From an uncultured Chloroflexia bacterium (GTDB lineage Bacteria > Chloroflexota > Limnocylindria > QHBO01), in contig CAVZPD010000009.1 of NCBI GenBank assembly GCA_963777045.1, forward strand, positions 371,009 to 435,008: a DNA stretch of 64,000 nucleotides, read 5' to 3'. The first letter of the stretch is position 1; each line of letters opens with the position of its first letter. Below, piece after piece: positions 223 through 46,127 of the stretch. A program made the translations under genes and the position numbers. A model generated the notes under the pieces. That model was given only the letters and a program-made list of their open reading frames with translations, was not told the DNA's origin and searched no databases.

Positions 223-1314
223 ATGCGCGTCCTCGTCCTCAACGCCGGCTCCAGCTCGCTGAAGACGAGCCTGGTGGGAGAGCCGGGCGACGTGACCGTC
301 TCGCGCGACGAGCTGCAGCGTCCCGCGCAGAGCGGCTGGAGCGGCGCCCTCGCCGAGGCGCTGGGTGGTGGCGATCGGATCGACGCCATCGGCCACCGGG
401 TCGTGCATGGTGGCGTCGGACACGCCGGTCCCATGCTCATCTCCGACACGGTCGTCGACGAGCTGGATGAGCTGCGGGACCTCGCTCCGCTGCACAACGG
501 TCCGGCCCTGGAGGTGATCGCGGCGGCCCGCGAGGCGTTTCCGGACCTGCCACAGGTCGCGTGCTTCGACACCGCCTTCCACGCCACCCTGCCGCCGCCG
601 GAGGTCGTCTACCCGCTGCCGTACGAGTGGTACGAGCGGTGGGGGGTTCGACGCTTCGGGTTCCATGGCCTCTCCGTCGCCTGGTCGGTGGAGCGCGCCG
701 CGAAGCTGCTGGAACGCCCCATCGGCGAGCTGCGCCTGGTCGTGGCGCACCTCGGCAGCGGCTGCTCGGTCACCGCGGTGGACGGCGGCCGCTCGGTGGC
801 GACCTCCATGGGCATGACCCCGCTCGAGGGGCTGATGATGGCGACCCGCTCCGGTTCGGTGGACCCCGGCCTCCTGCTGGAGCTGCTGGACGACAGTCGC
901 CTGACGCTGGACGAGCTGCGCCGGGCGCTGCAACAGGAGTCGGGGCTCGTGGGCCTCTCCGGGATCAGCGCCGACCTGCGCGAGGTGCAGCGGGCGGCCG
1001 CCGCGGGCGAGGAGCGGGCGGCGCTTGCGATCGAGGTGTTCGTGCGGCGCGCCGCGGCCGGGATCGCCGCCGTCGCCGTCGCCCTGCCGGCCGTCGACGC
1101 CCTCGTCTTCACGGCGGGCATCGGCGAGCACGCCGGTGACGTGCGCGCTGCGATCTGCAGCAGGCTGGCCGTGCTGGGACTGCCCGCCGTCCTCAACCAC
1201 GGATCGGACGAGGACGAGATCCTCAGCCTCCCCGGCTCGCGGGTGCGGGTGCTGCGCGTCGAGGCGCGGGAGGACCTGGTCATCGGTCGAGAGGTGGCGC
1301 GCCTGCTCGACTGA
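223..1314 (+). CDS. ackA: acetate kinase
   Basis: ATG at 223 gives MRVLVLNAGSSSLKTSL..., the acetate kinase N-terminal motif. The ORF is full length; the 5' part of the 97..1314 track ORF is upstream junk. Confidence 0.85.
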   Translation: MRVLVLNAGSSSLKTSLVGEPGDVTVSRDELQRPAQSGWSGALAEALGGGDRIDAIGHRVVHGGVGHAGPMLISDTVVDELDELRDLAPLHNGPALEVIAAAREAFPDLPQVACFDTAFHATLPPPEVVYPLPYEWYERWGVRRFGFHGLSVAWSVERAAKLLERPIGELRLVVAHLGSGCSVTAVDGGRSVATSMGMTPLEGLMMATRSGSVDPGLLLELLDDSRLTLDELRRALQQESGLVGLSGISADLREVQRAAAAGEERAALAIEVFVRRAAAGIAAVAVALPAVDALVFTAGIGEHAGDVRAAICSRLAVLGLPAVLNHGSDEDEILSLPGSRVRVLRVEAREDLVIGREVARLLD

Positions 1315-36085: not shown

Positions 36086-36143
36086 CCCGCCACGGTACCC
36101 GGCAGAGGCGGGGGCTTGCGCGGGCCGCTACATTGGCGGCCTC

Positions 36144-37872
36144 ATGAGCACCGAGCAATACGATCCCCGGGAGCACTCCCGCCGCCTCGTCGACGGTCCG
36201 GACCGCGCCGCTGCGCGGGCGATGCTGAAGGCCATCGGCTTCACCGACGAGGACCTGTCGAAGCCGATTATCGGCGTCGGATCCAGCTGGATCGAGACGA
36301 TGCCCTGCAACTACAACCAGCGCCACCTCGCCGAGCTGGTGAAGGACGGGATCCGGGCGGCCGGTGGCACGCCGATGGAGTTCAACACGATCGCCGTGTC
36401 GGACGGGGTCAGCATGGGCACCGAGGGGATGAAGGCATCGCTGGTCAGTCGCGAGGTGATCGCCGACTCGATCGAGCTGGTGGCGCGCGGCCACCTCTTC
36501 GACGGGCTGGTGATCCTGGTCGGCTGCGACAAGACCATTCCGGCGGCCGCCATGGCGCTCGCGCGCCTGGACCTGCCGGGCCTCGCGCTCTACAACGGGA
36601 CGATCCAGCCGGGCGTGGTGCGTGGGAAGCGCGATGCCACGGTGGTGACCGTGTTCGAAGCGATCGGCGCATACCGGGCCGGGAAGATCTCGCTCGAGGA
36701 GCTGCGCGAGATCGAGGACGCGTCGTGCCCGGGGCCAGGCGCCTGCGGCGGGCAGTTCACGGCCAACACGATGGCCACCGCACTCGAGTTCCTGGGCATC
36801 TCGCCGGGCGGGCTGAACGGCATTCCCGGCGACCGACCCGGCCAAGGACGACGCGGCCCGTCGCAGTGGCGAGCTGGCGATGGAGCTGGTGCGGGAAGGG
36901 ACGCGGCCGTCGCAGATCATGACCCGGGCCGCCATCGACAACGCGATCGCATCGGTCACCTCCATGGGCGGCTCGACGAACGGCGTGCTGCACCTGCTGG
37001 CCATCGCGCACGAGCTGGGGATCCCGCTCGAGATCGACGACTTCGACCGCATTGCGGCACGCACGCCCATCGTGGCCAACATGACTCCGGGAGGCCGATA
37101 CACGGCGGTCGACATCCACGAGGCGGGAGGCATCGGCCTGGTCGCCCGCGAGCTGATCCGAGGCGGGCTGATCGACGGGTCCACCCGCAACGTGGACGGG
37201 CGGACGCTGGCCGAGGTGGCGGACGCCGCGGTGGAGACACCCGGCCAGGAGGTGGTCGTCTCGGTCGAGCACCCGATCAAGCCGACCGGTGGCCTGGCGA
37301 TCCTGCACGGCTCGCTGGCGCCCGACGGCTGCGTCATCAAGCTGGCCGGCCACGAGCGCCGGCACCATCGCGGTCCGGCGCGGGTCTACGACTCGGAGGC
37401 CGAGTGCTACGACGCGGTGCGCGCGCAGCAGATCCTGCCAGGCGACGTGGTCGTCATCCGCAACGAGGGCCCGGTCGGCGGGCCCGGCATGCAGGAGATG
37501 CTCTCCGTCACCGCCGCGCTGGTGGGGGAGGGGCTGGGCGGAGACGTCGCGCTGCTCACCGACGGCCGCTTCTCGGGCGGAACCCACGGGCTGATGATCG
37601 GGCACGTGGCGCCGGAGGCGGCGCTGGGCGGACCCATCGCGCTGGTGCGCGAGGGGGACGAGATCGAGATCGACGTGGACGCGCGGCGGCTGGACCTGCT
37701 GGTGGACGACGAGGAGCTGGCGCGACGGCGGGCTGCCTGGTCGCCTGCTCCGCCCCGCTATCCCGGCGGCGTGCTCGCCAAGTACGCGGCGCAGGTGTCA
37801 TCGGCCTCGGAGGGTGCCGTGACGACAGGCGCCCGCATGCGTCGCCAGCTGGAGAGCGCCACCGACGGCTGA
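36144..37872 (+). CDS. ilvD: dihydroxy-acid dehydratase; single-base insertion near 36832
   Basis: [33 protein letters not shown]...[11 protein letters not shown]...[17 protein letters not shown]... is the N-terminus. Deleting one G in [10 protein letters not shown] restores ...[26 protein letters not shown]... and the C-terminus ...[28 protein letters not shown]...*. Confidence 0.8.
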
Positions 37873-39939: not shown

Positions 39940-40460
39940 GACGCCACCTCCGGTTCGGCCCGATCTTCAGGTGTCCCGACCGCGCTGCGCAGGACGCCCA
40001 GGGCCGCGTTGAGCCGCGACTTGGCCGTGCCTTCCGGCACGCCCAGCGCGTCGGCGGACTCGGCGATCGAGTAGCCAAGGCTGTAGTGGAGTGCCAGGAC
40101 CGCCCGCTGGTCGGGGTTGAGGCGCTCGAAGGCCGGTTCCAGGAGGGCGCGCGCCTCGATCGGTCCACGGAAGTCGGCCGGACTGGTGGCCGATGTCTCC
40201 GCCATCGCCATCGGCGCAGCGACCGGGCGGCGGCGCTGGCTTCGGAGCCAGTTGCGCGACCGGTTCACGCAGATCCGGCGCAGCCAGGCCGGGAACGCTT
40301 CCGGGCTTCGGAGGCGTGGCAGCTCCTGCCAGGCCCTGACGAACGTCTCCTGCGCGACGTCGGGTGCGCTCGCTTCGCCGACGATGGCCGCAGCCAGCCG
40401 ATAGATGCCGGACATGTGCTGTTCCACGAGCATCTCGAACGCCTCCTGGTCGCGGGCCAT
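39936..40460 (-). CDS. ECF-type RNA polymerase sigma factor
   Basis: MARDQEAFEMLVEQHMSGIYRLAAAIVG... (region 2) and ...VLALHYSLGYSIAESADALGVPEGTAKSRLNAALGVLR (region 4). The track ORF extends to 40709, but the internal ATG 40460 fits the sigma N-terminus; the GAAGGGAGGG RBS lies ~24 nt upstream of it, too far for ideal spacing, so the start stays ambiguous. Confidence 0.65.
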   Translation of the reverse strand: MARDQEAFEMLVEQHMSGIYRLAAAIVGEASAPDVAQETFVRAWQELPRLRSPEAFPAWLRRICVNRSRNWLRSQRRRPVAAPMAMAETSATSPADFRGPIEARALLEPAFERLNPDQRAVLALHYSLGYSIAESADALGVPEGTAKSRLNAALGVLRSAVGTPEDRAEPEVAS

Positions 40461-40830
40461 GGCTCGGCGGATGGTCTCCAGCAGATTCCCTCCCTTCGGC
40501 CGCTCACTATCCAGACACCGGAATCCCGCGAACTGTTCGCCGTCATTCTTGATCGGCTTGGCTTCTCCGCGAAGGATGCCCGGGGATGCGGGCGAAGCTC
40601 TCACGAGATTCTGTGGCCGCTGTCTTTGGACAGTTCTCGTACCGCACGTCCGCACGTGCGGTACGTGCGGCCAGCGCCGTACGAGGGAAGGCTGACAGCA
40701 GCGGAGCATCGGCCGTGACGACCGGCATCCGCATGCAGCCCTGGGCTGGTATCACCGCTGAGGCGCACACGCAGCGGCGCGCTGAGCGTGACAGGGGGTT
40801 GGGGTTGACAGCGCTGTTAGGGTCCCCCCA

Positions 40831-40974
40831 ATGCACCCGATGAGCGCGCGACTCGCGTCCGCATCGCCGGCGCCGGCCAACCAGGCTGCGCTCGGCGGTT
40901 TCGTCGTGGTACTCGGCATTCTCCGGCTCGTCCTCCTTATTGGATGGCGGGATAGAGGACGCCGGACGGCCTGA
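40831..40974 (+). CDS. Ile/Leu/Val-rich leader peptide of the ilvBNC-leu operon
   Basis: MHPMSARLASASPAPANQAALGGFVVVLGILRLVLLIGWRDRGRRTA* (or a start at the second ATG, 40840). The run FVVVLGILRLVLLI holds 12 branched-chain codons out of 14. TTGACA at 40805-40810 lies just upstream. Confidence 0.5.
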   Translation: MHPMSARLASASPAPANQAALGGFVVVLGILRLVLLIGWRDRGRRTA

Positions 40975-40999
40975 CGGCCAACCGAAAGCGAACCCGAAT

Positions 41000-41036
41000 C
41001 CCGCCAGCCAGCAAGGCCGGCGGGTTTTTCGTTCTC
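41000..41036 (+). terminator. rho-independent terminator (attenuator) between the leader peptide and ilvB
   Basis: cccgccAgcc-AGCAA-ggccggcggg is a 10 bp stem with one mismatch. It is followed by UUUUUCGUUCUCC, about 55 nt before the ilvB ATG. Confidence 0.6.
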
Positions 41037-41090
41037 CGGACCGATAACTCCCAGGACCGAAAGGGAACCCGAAAAAGTGCAGGCAACTTC

Positions 41091-42842
<1,752 letters not shown>

Positions 42843-42844
42843 CA

Positions 42845-43378
42845 GTGTCGGCGGACCCGCATCAGCGCCGGCACGTGGTGAGCGCCCTGGTCATCGACCG
42901 TCCGGGGACGCTCAACCGCGTCTCCGGCCTCTTCCGGGCACGCTCGTTCAACATCGAGTCGCTCACGGTCGGGAGCACGCTGCAGCCGGGCCGATCGCGC
43001 ATGACGGTCGTCATCCGCGGCGACGAGGCGCACCTGCACCAGGTGCTCGCCCAGCTGGAACGACTGATCGAGGTGATCGAGGTCACCGACCTGACCCACG
43101 CGCCGCGCGTCGAGCTGGAGCTCGCGCTGGTTGAGCTCGATGCTCCCTCCGGAGCCGATGACGATGCCGCCATCCGGGCGGTGCTCGAGGCGGCCGGCGG
43201 CGCGGTGATTTCAACCGATGACGGGGCCTGGAGGCTGCGACTGACCGCCGCGCCGGCCGACGTCGAGGAAGCCCTCTCCCTGCTGCGCCGCCACGGGCTG
43301 CGCGGCCTCGTCCGCGCCGGAACGGTCGCCATGGCCGCCGGCGAAGCCATCACGAAGATCGGAGCAAGCACCACATGA
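42845..43378 (+). CDS. ilvN: acetolactate synthase small (regulatory) subunit
   Basis: GTG 42845 lies just after the ilv[63 protein letters not shown]... is the ACT domain. Confidence 0.8.
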
Positions 43379-44442
43379 CGAAGCTCATCTACGACCGTGA
43401 CATCGACCCGGCGGCGCTCGCCGGGCAGACGGTGGCGGTCATCGGCTACGGCAGCCAGGGCGAGGCGCACGCGCGCAACCTGGCCGATTCCGGCGTGGAC
43501 GTGATCGTCGGCCTGCGCCACGATTCCGCCTCGGCCGATCGGGCCCGGGAGGCTGGCCTGCGGGTGACCGATGCCGCAGCGGCCGCCGCCGCCGCGCAGG
43601 TCGTGATGCTGCTCGTCCCCGACACGGCGGCGCCATCGGTCTATGAGGCCGAGATCGAGCCGAACCTGGCCGATGGCGACCTGCTGATGTTCGCCCACGG
43701 CTTCAACATCCACTTCGGCACCATCGACCCGCCGGGTGGCGTGGACGTGGGGATGGTGGCGCCGAAGGGCCCCGGACACCTGGTGCGGCGGCTCTACGAG
43801 CAGGGCGGCGGGGTCCCGGCCCTGTTCGCCGTCCACCGCGACGCGACCGGCACGGCCCGCGCCCGAACCCTCGCCTACGCCCGGGGGATCGGCGCGGGCC
43901 GTGCCGGCATCCTCGAAACGACGTTCGCCGAGGAGACTGAGACCGACCTGTTCGGCGAGCAGGCCGTCCTGTGCGGCGGCGTCACCTCGCTGGTGCAGGC
44001 CGGATTCGAGACGCTGGTCGATGCCGGCTACCAGCCGGAGCTCGCCTACTTCGAGACGATGCACGAGCTCAAGCTGATCGTGGACCTCATGTACCAGGGC
44101 GGCCTGCAGTACATGCGCTACTCGATCAGCGATACCGCCGAGTACGGCGACTACGTTTCCGGCCCGCGGATCGTGGACGAGCGGATCCGCGCCGAGATGC
44201 GCCAGATCCTGTCCGAGATCCAGGACGGCAGCTTCGCCCGTCGCTGGATCGAGGAGGGGCAGCAGGGTGCGCCGGAGTTCCGCCGTCTGCGTGCCAAGAA
44301 CGCGAATGCGCGGATCGAGGGCGTGGGCGCGGAGCTGCGCTCGCACATGGACTTCATCGGCCCCAAGTCGGCGCCGGAGGGCTGGGCCGATTCGGGCCAC
44401 CAGAACCAGGTGCGAGCCGGGGCAGGGGAGGAGAACGCCTGA
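43375..44442 (+). CDS. ilvC: ketol-acid reductoisomerase
   Basis: Intact. [43 protein letters not shown].... The ATG overlaps the ilvN stop. Confidence 0.9.
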
Positions 44443-46127
44443 TGCCCCCGCGATCCCGGACGGTACGCGTCTTCGACACCACCTTGCGCGACGGGGAGCA
44501 GACGCCGGGCGCCGCGCTCACCGTCGACGAGAAGGTCCAGGTCGCCCGCCAGCTGGCACGGTTGCAGGTCGACGTCATCGAGGCCGGCTTCCCGGCCGCC
44601 TCGCCCGGCGAGGCGGAGGCGGTCCGCCGCATCGCCGAGGAGGTTGGCGCAGAAGCCGATGCGCCGGCCATCGCGGCGCTGGCGCGCTGCGTCCCGGCCG
44701 ACGTGACCGCGGCGGCGCTGGCGCTGGAGCCGGCAACGCGCACGCAGCTGCACGTCTTCATCGCCACCTCCGACATCCACCTCAAGCACAAGCTGCGCGC
44801 CACGCGCGAGGAGGTGCTCACACGCATCAGCGAGTGCGTGGCGCAGGCACGGCGCATGGTCGGCGACGGCCAGGAGGTCGAGTTCAGCGCCGAGGACGCC
44901 AGCCGCACCGAGCTGCCGTTCCTGCTGGAGGCGTACGAGCGGGCGCTCGACGCGGGCGCATCGGTCATCAACGTGCCCGACACCGTCGGCTACGCCGAGC
45001 CGGACGAGTTCGCATCGGTCGTCAAGCAGGTGGTGAAGGCCGTCGGCAAGCGCGGCATCGTGTCGGTCCACTGTCACAACGACCTGGGCCTGGCCACCGC
45101 CAACACGCTGGCCGCCGTGCGCGCCGGGGCGCGGCAGGTGGAGGTCACCGTCAACGGCCTGGGCGAGCGGGCCGGGAACGCCTCCCTGGAAGAGGTCGTC
45201 ATGACGCTGCGCACCCGTCCGACGCGCTTCGGCGGGGCGACGACCAGCGTCGTCACCGAGCAGCTCACGCCGGCCAGCCGCCTGGTCAGCTACCTGACCG
45301 GGATCGCCGTGCAGCCCAACAAGAGCGTGGTGGGCGGCAACGCCTTCGCGCACGAGTCGGGTATCCACCAGGACGGCTTTCTGAAGAACGCGCTGACCTA
45401 CGAGATCATGACCCCCGAGTCGGTGGGGCTGACCGGCTCCACGCTGACGCTCGGCAAGCTCTCCGGCCGCCGCGGGTTCAACGAGCGGCTGCGGCGCCTG
45501 GGCGTGGAGCTGGAGCCGGAGGCGCTCGACACGCTCTACGCCGAGGCGATCGCCCTGGCCGACCAGAAGAAGCAGGTGACCGACGCCGACCTGCTGGCGC
45601 TCGCCGAGCAGACGACCGACCCCGTGCCGCAGCTCGTGCAGCTGGAGCACTGGGCGGCCGCCAGCCGCCAGGGCGAGTCGAGCAGTGGCAGCGTCAGTGT
45701 CTTCTTCGACGGCAAGACCTACCGGGCCTTTGCCGGCGGGAACGGGCCGGTCGACGCGCTGCTCAAGGCGGTCGACAACGCGCTGGAGCAGATCATCGGC
45801 GGGCGGCCGACGCTGGTCGACTACCAGCTGCGGAGCGTCGGCTCCGGCGAGGACGCGCAGGGCGAGGCGATGCTGAAGATCGCGCAGCCCGGACCGCCCG
45901 GTGACGACGGCCTGCCGCAGACGTACACCGGCCACGGCCTCTCGACGAACGTGGTCGAGGCGTCGCTGCGCGCCTACCTGGCGGCGATCAACAAGCTCAT
46001 CGCCGAGCACCCCGCGTCGGAATCGGCGCGGCAGGCAGCTGCCGAGAACACGCCGAAGCCGAACGGGAGCGGACCTGGTTCCGGTCCTGTCCCCGCCGGT
46101 TCCGCCAGCGCGAAGGCGCGCCCGTGA
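44442..46127 (+). CDS. leuA: 2-isopropylmalate synthase
   Basis: ATG 44442 overlaps the ilvC TGA. ...VRVFDTTLRDGEQTPGAALTVDEKVQVARQL...HCHNDLGLATANTLAAVRAGA.... It is intact and includes the C-terminal regulatory domain. Confidence 0.9.
   Translation: MPPRSRTVRVFDTTLRDGEQTPGAALTVDEKVQVARQLARLQVDVIEAGFPAASPGEAEAVRRIAEEVGAEADAPAIAALARCVPADVTAAALALEPATRTQLHVFIATSDIHLKHKLRATREEVLTRISECVAQARRMVGDGQEVEFSAEDASRTELPFLLEAYERALDAGASVINVPDTVGYAEPDEFASVVKQVVKAVGKRGIVSVHCHNDLGLATANTLAAVRAGARQVEVTVNGLGERAGNASLEEVVMTLRTRPTRFGGATTSVVTEQLTPASRLVSYLTGIAVQPNKSVVGGNAFAHESGIHQDGFLKNALTYEIMTPESVGLTGSTLTLGKLSGRRGFNERLRRLGVELEPEALDTLYAEAIALADQKKQVTDADLLALAEQTTDPVPQLVQLEHWAAASRQGESSSGSVSVFFDGKTYRAFAGGNGPVDALLKAVDNALEQIIGGRPTLVDYQLRSVGSGEDAQGEAMLKIAQPGPPGDDGLPQTYTGHGLSTNVVEASLRAYLAAINKLIAEHPASESARQAAAENTPKPNGSGPGSGPVPAGSASAKARP

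Follow-up and report, generated by a model that had tools for sequence, protein, structure and literature searches.

The leader of the ilvB-ilvN-ilvC-leuA operon in an uncultured bacterium of the Limnocylindria class of the Chloroflexota has the architecture of a classic ribosome-mediated (leader-peptide) attenuator, and we put the probability that it works as a multivalent attenuator of this operon at roughly 0.8. The stretch of DNA that was analyzed, hereafter the window, comprises 64,000 nucleotides of contig CAVZPD010000009.1 (GenBank assembly GCA_963777045.1, positions 371,009 to 435,008 of the forward strand), and positions are numbered from its first letter. A short open reading frame (ORF) rich in codons for branched-chain amino acids (BCAAs) runs in the same direction as the operon and stops 116 nt 5′ of ilvB, with ilvBNC-leuA downstream. 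All of the structural features that define leader-peptide attenuators were found computationally. A sequence-only reading of the window had proposed a branched-chain attenuator following the ilvBN/ilvGMEDA paradigm, and this proposal is supported here by the conserved ORF, terminator and antiterminator and by a predicted folding switch. The comparison with ilvBN and ilvGMEDA concerns mechanism only, because the host belongs to the Chloroflexota and its leader has no sequence relationship to the described leaders.

The leader ORF and its competing hairpins

The features of the leader and the operon are listed in Table 1. The sequence-only reading had described an ORF of 47 codons, which is present, and had credited its regulatory block FVVVLGILRLVLLI with 12 branched-chain codons in 14. 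The block is indeed rich in such codons, though the count is 11 of 14, the exceptions being F, G, and R. A search of the six frames of the 64 kb gave no other 14-codon stretch with 11 or more V/L/I codons, and none arose in 20 first-order Markov randomizations of the window. Four of the 11 codons are rare ones (ATT twice, GTA and CTT once each); in four neighboring genes, none of these three codons exceeds 1.6% of its synonymous family. CTG is unused in the block, yet it makes up 68% of the Leu codons in the same four genes.

The terminator hairpin has the form CCCGCC-a-GCC/AGCAA/GGC-c-GGCGGG and is followed by TTTTTCGTTCT, including UUUUUCGUU. It begins 25 nt after the stop codon of the ORF, and the U-rich run (to about 41034) ends approximately 56 nt before the ATG of ilvB, in agreement with the GC-rich hairpin and U-tract that had been placed about 25 nt after the stop and about 55 nt before ilvB. 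A scan with a simple terminator consensus missed the hairpin at 41000-41024 because its stem is bulged.

The segment GGCGGGAU (40946-40953), which lies inside the ORF, is the exact complement of AUCCCGCC (40998-41005), a segment that takes in the terminator's 5′ arm. The pairing extends beyond this core. The cofold of 40925-40953 with 40998-41026 reaches −38.6 kcal/mol, and a repeat search gives two 19-nt arms (40935-40953 and 40998-41016) that are 84% complementary. A further hairpin, corresponding to the 1:2 structure of attenuators, sequesters or encloses the antiterminator strand and is the predicted form of the nascent RNA up to 40997. The segment 40964-40984 (21 nt), which contains a small hairpin with the stop codon in its loop, folds to −10.2 kcal/mol. 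The whole leader folds better than shuffled sequences (z = −2.46).

Another GC-rich hairpin is predicted inside the ORF, where the segment 40855-40905 (51 nt) folds to −26.4 kcal/mol. Its equivalent in relatives, CCGG...CCGG, is 77% paired, compared with 57-60% when slid by one column. The hairpin directly precedes the regulatory codons and is followed by UUUCGU; judging from its predicted fold, it may be a polymerase pause or coupling hairpin.

The sequence-only reading had called for folding of the 1:2, 2:3, and 3:4 alternatives. We computed ensemble probabilities after masking the RNA that a ribosome would cover, set at 13 nt counted from the first base in the A-site. The predicted folds are mutually exclusive. 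With any of codons 22-35 in the A-site, the terminator has a probability of approximately 0, and from codon 36 to the stop it has one of approximately 0.8, which places the switch between codons 35 and 36. Changing the footprint to 10 or 16 nt shifts this boundary by one codon.

Table 1. Positions of the leader elements, the operon and the leader forms of orthologous loci (window positions unless a locus handle is given)
Feature	Position	Strand	Details
TTGACA hexamer	40805-40810	+	Conserved, possible operator; 20 nt before ATG
Extended −10-like TGtTAGGGT	40815-40823	+	Putative promoter
Leader-peptide ORF	40831-40974	+	47 codons + TGA; ATG start; peptide MHPMSARLASASPAPANQAALGGFVVVLGILRLVLLIGWRDRGRRTA
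GC-rich hairpin inside ORF	40863-40899	+	Predicted; just 5′ of regulatory codons
Regulatory codon block	40900-40941	+	FVVVLGILRLVLLI; 4 Val, 5 Leu, 2 Ile
Anti-antiterminator (1:2) hairpin	40922-40966	+	40922-40935 with 40955-40966; −21.0 kcal/mol
Antiterminator 5′ strand	40925-40953	+	Core GGCGGGAU at 40946-40953; pairs with 40998-41026
Small hairpin	40968-40979	+	GGCC-UGAC-GGCC, stop codon in loop
Antiterminator 3′ strand	40998-41026	+	Entire terminator hairpin region
Predicted intrinsic terminator	41000-41034	+	Stem-loop 41000-41024, then U-tract TTTTTCGTTC; −18.6 to −19.2 kcal/mol
Operon ilvB-ilvN-ilvC-leuA, putatively regulated	41091-46127	+	
ilvB	41091-42842	+	Pfam TPP_enzyme N/M/C
ilvN	~42845-43378	+	Pfam ACT_AHAS_ss + ALS_ss_C
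ilvC	43375-44442	+	Pfam KARI_N/C
leuA	~44445-46127	+	Pfam HMGL-like + LeuA_dimer
Short leader form, 44-47 residues	Window, L002, L048		
Long leader form, 65-72 residues	L001, L003-L016, L018, L021, L027, L028, L044 (e.g. L008 1994-2209)		(M/L)GLFDGRxRRxVAVVVTxDGRRVxVP...VSLLxLLRSLLxGLxxLxGLLITGSRRENGGTRRxGR
Third leader variant	L017 ~2170-2330; L022 ~540-700		Ends ...LLGLLIQPRRG*; CCCGGCGGGG before stop, then same terminator design

Leaders of related Limnocylindria

The best matches of the window ilvB among 185,579 species genomes are from uncultured Limnocylindria, two at 83-84% and about 25 at 58-63% identity; the genome is neither actinobacterial nor proteobacterial. All 25 orthologous genome loci with upstream sequence (three of the short form, 20 of the long form and two of the third variant) carry an in-frame BCAA-rich ORF followed by a strong terminator, together with a complementary segment that would serve as antiterminator. 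The ORFs end 40-60 nt before a hairpin with a U-rich tail. In the 23 loci that were folded with RNAfold, the terminator equivalents range from −19 to −26 kcal/mol, each with its U-rich tail, and in the two loci of the third variant the hairpin and T-run were read by eye. Conservation of the ORF with its frame, its start and the terminator extends to loci whose ilvB is about 60% identical, and every locus examined has the ORF directly upstream of ilvB. In most long-form loci, a hairpin with the stop codon in its loop was also recognized by eye, with other stem sequences.

A scan of metagenomes with a 21-nt pattern from the window antiterminator gave 36 loci, 26 of which are further short-form leaders upstream of ilvB. 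They likewise show the in-frame BCAA-rich ORF, the terminator and the complementary antiterminator segment, and their consensus peptide is MSxERGxxAAxPxVRPxxxGLLGVLVLIxILRLVILLGWRDGGRSTE. The sequence-only reading had named absence of the ORF or the terminator from orthologous leaders as the observation that would speak against it; the opposite was seen at the 25 genome and 26 metagenome loci.

The pairing of the three structures was scored separately in 24 short forms and 20 long forms against slid controls. RNAalifold on a mixed alignment had recovered almost nothing with the terminators misaligned, and the groups were therefore analyzed apart. In the short forms, the 1:2 hairpin (CGUCAUCC:GGAUGGCG) is 99.5% paired with no covariation, and the terminator is 99% paired with one covarying pair (C-G to U-A in 10 sequences). 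The antiterminator of these forms is 93% paired, compared with 32-48% when slid. In the long forms, the terminator is 97% paired with three covarying pairs, and the antiterminator is 94% paired (slid, 40-63%). The slid controls for the terminator and the 1:2 structure give 32-49% in the short forms and 46-59% in the long forms.

The codon positions at which the leaders vary differ between segments. In the BCAA block of 26 relatives, codon position 2 is invariably T, whereas positions 1 and 3 vary, so that V, L, I, and M interchange. This pattern points to selection for the amino-acid class, as expected of regulatory codons. By contrast, none of the three codon positions varies in LITGSRRE, the part of the long forms that corresponds to the antiterminator segment; since these loci were fetched via ilvB independently of the leader, the invariance suggests a constraint at the RNA level. 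DGRRVxVP in the long forms is fixed at codon positions 1 and 2 and variable at position 3, which indicates a constraint at the peptide level. The N-terminal half of the short-form ORF varies freely in amino acids, and one short-form relative lacks this half altogether and is 31 residues long. Start codon and reading frame nevertheless persist across the three divergent leader forms, and synonymous-type variation is present in the ORFs on sequence comparison. Together with the pattern of start codons and Shine-Dalgarno (SD) sequences described below, these features are indirect signs that the leader ORF may be translated.

The long-form and third-variant leaders are homologous to that of the window. 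They share with it the C-terminal half ...LLR.L...G(W/S)R(D/R)..GG.RR and the GGCGGGA core of the antiterminator, and they too lie upstream of ilvB and have a terminator of this design. The long forms possess an extra N-terminal VAVVVTxDGRRVxVP module, a canonical promoter, an SD sequence and TTG/GTG starts, all of which the window form is without. The window clade has lost the module and probably became leaderless. The leader peptide of the long forms may owe an additional function to this module. The AlphaFold2 model of the long form shows a β-hairpin and a long helix with low confidence (predicted local distance difference test, 68; predicted template modeling score, 0.33). One long-form member gives a weak match to Pfam YukD (E = 0.002).

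A peptide profile search gave at least 1917 protein clusters, all unnamed or annotated as "hypothetical protein" and none with a Pfam domain. Searches with 23 members of the leader family gave no match above the cut-offs in Pfam and NCBIfam, and the best match of the leader peptide in the PDB, with E = 1.4, is no relative. Unrelated BCAA-rich upstream ORFs were noticed in other Chloroflexota classes (Caldilineaceae, Anaerolineae, and Ktedonobacteraceae), for example MAVVVVLVDLLIGLKEAFGVGRATT and MGLLIALIIVVVLLPGKSRGRLGWHP; those in loci L030, L049, L073, and L078 lie 100-175 nt upstream of ilvB. The strategy is thus probably widespread in the phylum.

Putative promoter, start codon and surrounding region

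The promoter and start codon were compared in the 24 short-form loci with enough upstream sequence. All of them start with ATG, and TGnTAnnnT ends 6-9 nt (mostly 6-7 nt) before this ATG in each. SD-like GGAG, GAGG, or AGGA within −20 to −4 was found in none of the 24. The long forms are different: 19 of the 20 start with TTG or GTG, 17 of the 20 have an SD sequence, and their canonical −35/−10 promoter (e.g. TTGCGC-17-TAGACT) lies about 40-55 nt upstream. The sole ATG-started long form has no SD sequence, and its −10 is at a distance of 10 nt. Unlike the SD-led TTG/GTG-started long forms, the short forms combine an ATG with a −10 element at 6-9 nt and lack an SD sequence, which suggests that their leader mRNA is probably leaderless, with transcription in the window probably starting at about 40830/40831, next to or at the A of the ATG. 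A leaderless mRNA beginning there would make the first ATG (40831) the start. The sequence-only reading had considered that a second in-frame ATG at 40840 may be the real start; this ATG is absent in relatives, and the conserved start is the first one.

The TTGACA hexamer 20 nt before the first ATG, which the same reading had pointed out, is found at 40805-40810, and the listed short-form relatives that have upstream sequence carry it as GGGTTGACA (region 40802-40830). It does not qualify as an ordinary −35 element, since the conserved −10-like hexamer TAGGGT (TAnGGT in the short forms) follows it after 7 nt rather than about 17 nt, and no −10 occurs 16-18 nt downstream of it. A scan with a simple promoter consensus called no promoter in the leader region; the putative promoter is not of the two-hexamer −35/−10 type. 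In addition, GGGTTGAC is complementary to GTCCACCC just 5′ of the ATG (40802-40830), and in loci L108 and L084 the complementarity is kept in another register, GGGTTG...CAACCC. TTGACA could serve as an operator, alone or within a palindrome of GGGTTGAC and GTCCACCC, or these two segments could form a 5′ hairpin; TTGACA with the GTCCCCCC stretch is a possible site for a second regulator.

The sequence-only reading had the attenuator explain a non-coding gap of 380 bp upstream of ilvB. This size is too small; a divergent gene for an extracytoplasmic function (ECF) sigma factor most likely starts near 40460, and the intergenic region is about 630 bp, within which the attenuator accounts for 40805-41090. 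In the divergent region that separates the sigma gene from the leader, a perfect inverted repeat of 12 nt, CGTACCGCACGT/ACGTGCGGTACG, occupies 40638-40649 and 40654-40665, its arms being 4 nt apart. It is flanked by further copies of CCGCACGT/ACGTGCGG (region 40636-40685), and there is no U-tract; the repeat may be an operator or a 5′-untranslated region structure of the sigma gene. On the other side, the spacer from the terminator to the ilvB ATG (41035-41090) is about 30 nt longer than those in L002 and L048 and contains GGACCGA twice (41038-41044 and 41056-41062). Relatives have GAGGA as the SD sequence of ilvB; that of the window is, by comparison, weak or distant. Farther upstream, ilvD (36141-37869) is split over two frames. 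Its N-terminal part turns into Arg/Gly-rich nonsense, and its C-terminal part continues in another frame from 36817, which implies, as judged from the sequence, a frameshift near 36820-36850 that would be either an assembly indel or the mark of a pseudogene.

Proposed mechanism, its alternatives and known attenuators

The analysis shows which elements the sequence contains, how they are conserved, at which codon positions the ORF varies and that the folds are predicted to exclude one another; the attenuator model adds the transcription start, translation of the ORF and a response to BCAAs as inferred parts. According to this model, the extended −10 element TGtTAGGGT would direct a transcript starting at or next to the ATG at 40831, and a ribosome would load on the leaderless mRNA and trail the polymerase. 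With too little charged tRNA for Val, Leu or Ile, the ribosome would stall in codons 25-35 (40903-40935) and cover the 5′ arm of the 1:2 hairpin, leaving GGCGGGAU (40946-40953) and its flanks free. These would then pair with AUCCCGCC and the following nucleotides (40998-41026), the terminator would be consumed, and the polymerase would enter ilvB. When Val, Leu, and Ile are plentiful, the ribosome would reach the stop codon at 40972 (or pass codon 36) and cover the 5′ strand of the antiterminator, so that the terminator at 41000-41024 with its U-tract would form and transcription would end before ilvB.

Several observations weigh against this model. The untranslated window leader favors the antiterminator at equilibrium (terminator probability 0.02), and termination without translation would, on this folding, depend on kinetics, unlike in the textbook trp case; the untranslated leaders of L002 and L048, on the other hand, favor the terminator (0.96 and 0.98). 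The terminators of the 20 long forms are so stable that equilibrium folding shows the switch in no more than about 5-6 of them. The mask folding of the long forms, in most of which the terminator dominates, is ambiguous and was excluded as evidence for them. Attenuation is a kinetic process, and therefore these equilibrium preferences do not refute the model, nor can the behavior of the leader without translation be predicted from them. The antiterminator is backed by conserved complementarity and not by covariation, with no double change in the short forms and one in the long forms. The metagenome loci were chosen by a pattern inside the antiterminator, so the invariance of these 21 nt is partly by construction. 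A length of 47 codons is also long for a leader peptide. Finally, mutation of the candidate regulatory codons in the ilvB leader of Streptomyces coelicolor had no effect, as reported in PMC1262725, and hence architecture alone does not prove the mechanism.

The S. coelicolor result is also a precedent for an explanation in which the terminator/antiterminator switch is real but is set by a protein or a small ligand, the ORF being a passenger or a ribosome loader. Nucleotide conservation in the antiterminator in excess of coding needs would fit such control, and the conserved TTGACA with the palindrome-like GGGTTGAC/GTCCACCC at the promoter hints at an extra regulator. We nevertheless regard this explanation as unlikely. 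Rfam (release 15, 4227 families) has no match with E < 1 in 40400-41300, even with permissive filters; in particular, no model for a T-box, a ppGpp riboswitch, a Leu, His, Thr or Trp leader or ilvB-OMG matches the window leader. An RNA- or protein-binding site would not fix T at codon position 2 while leaving positions 1 and 3 free to vary, and the start codon and frame are kept through three divergent leader forms. Rfam searches of seven related or comparison loci also gave no leader match. Their only match at the gathering score is a c-di-GMP-I-GGC riboswitch (RF03167, 66 bits) at 1468-1545 of L008, about 450 nt 5′ of the ilvB leader and unrelated to the attenuator.

If, instead, the ORF encoded an independent functional small protein and the hairpin were its own terminator with partial readthrough into ilvB, long forms of 65-72 residues with VAVVVTxDGRRVxVP under peptide-level selection would be natural, as would the annotation of so many clusters as hypothetical proteins. 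However, the short form of the window does without this module, the N-terminal half is variable or deletable, the Pfam, NCBIfam, and PDB searches gave no relative, and the long-form structure model is of low confidence. Moreover, a plain terminator needs no conserved complementary segment inside the ORF, and the ORF lies directly 5′ of ilvB at every locus examined; we therefore consider this reading highly improbable. A chance ORF beside a chance hairpin in GC-rich intergenic DNA deserves mention because high-GC DNA is rich in long spurious ORFs and because the simple terminator and promoter scans came out empty here. The comparative data, with ORF, reading frame, start and terminator all retained where ilvB identity has fallen to about 60%, effectively refute it, and the uniqueness of the BCAA run in the window and the fold z-score of the whole leader also run counter to it; its probability is negligible.

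A different matter is whether the attenuator, with its ribosome-set switch, is the whole story. It is rather unlikely, but worth considering, that the Limnocylindria leader family does more than count codons. The antiterminator is the thermodynamic default in the window, and termination would need a ribosome reaching the stop on a leaderless mRNA; if true, this default would make the leader a translation-licensed terminator. The conserved TTGACA, 7 nt from the −10 element and accompanied by complementary segments before the ATG, could form a second control site, at the promoter. The VAVVVTxDGRRVxVP module of the long forms, which is not a BCAA run, is selected at the amino-acid level, suggesting a small-protein or nascent-chain role on top of attenuation. 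These unusual features (the long-form module, the TTGACA spacing and the default-on equilibrium) are mostly outside the core finding.

The mechanism itself is a textbook one, and the understanding of attenuation is unchanged by it. The finding extends leader-peptide attenuation of ilvB to an abundant class of uncultured soil and freshwater Chloroflexota; our literature searches found no description of leader-peptide attenuation in Chloroflexi. It also offers a functional reading for the at least 1917 clusters of "hypothetical proteins". For genome annotation, the short ORF is better called a leader peptide than a gene product or non-coding DNA. In addition, the leaderless ATG-started and the SD-led TTG/GTG-started leaders provide a natural comparison within one family.

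In Escherichia coli and Salmonella, the ilvGMEDA (ilvL) and ilvBN (ivbL) operons are under multivalent attenuation through Val, Leu, and Ile codons in a 32-residue leader with competing 1:2, 2:3, and 3:4 structures. Unlike the window leader, the ilvL and ivbL leaders are SD-led and shorter, and they have no sequence similarity to it; the untranslated RNA of the window, in contrast to theirs, is predicted to favor the antiterminator at equilibrium. The candidate actinobacterial ilvB leaders (Mycobacterium and Streptomyces) and the ilvB-OMG and Leptospira ilvB motifs resemble the window in having a short ORF with an Ile/Val/Leu run beside a terminator upstream of ilvB, whereas they belong to other lineages and other sequence families. 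They are predictions of comparative genomics (PMC1262725; PMC10272879), and since the Streptomyces leader failed the codon mutation test, the analogy with the actinobacterial leaders is not proof. By sequence, the window leader belongs to none of the described families.

The ilvBNC attenuator of Corynebacterium glutamicum (IlvL; ilvB-II motif) is like the window leader in its ilvBNC operon and BCAA-rich upstream ORF (PMC11857589, PMC10272879). The model for this attenuator comprises anti-antiterminator, antiterminator and terminator hairpins with CUU and GUA as control codons (PMC11857589), and both the set of three hairpins and the rare CUU and GUA codons have counterparts in the window (PMC11857589, PMC10272879). 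Its transcription starts 1 nt from the leader peptide's start codon (PMC11857589), and for the window a start that coincides with the leader start codon or lies 1 nt from it is likewise inferred. The two systems nevertheless belong to different phyla and show no sequence or Rfam relationship. The peptide has 47 residues in the window and 15 in C. glutamicum, and the 292-nt leader of C. glutamicum compares with 116 nt from the ORF stop to the ilvB ATG in the window (about 260 nt from the ATG at 40831). Furthermore, the operon in the window adds leuA, and its antiterminator pairs with the whole terminator hairpin.

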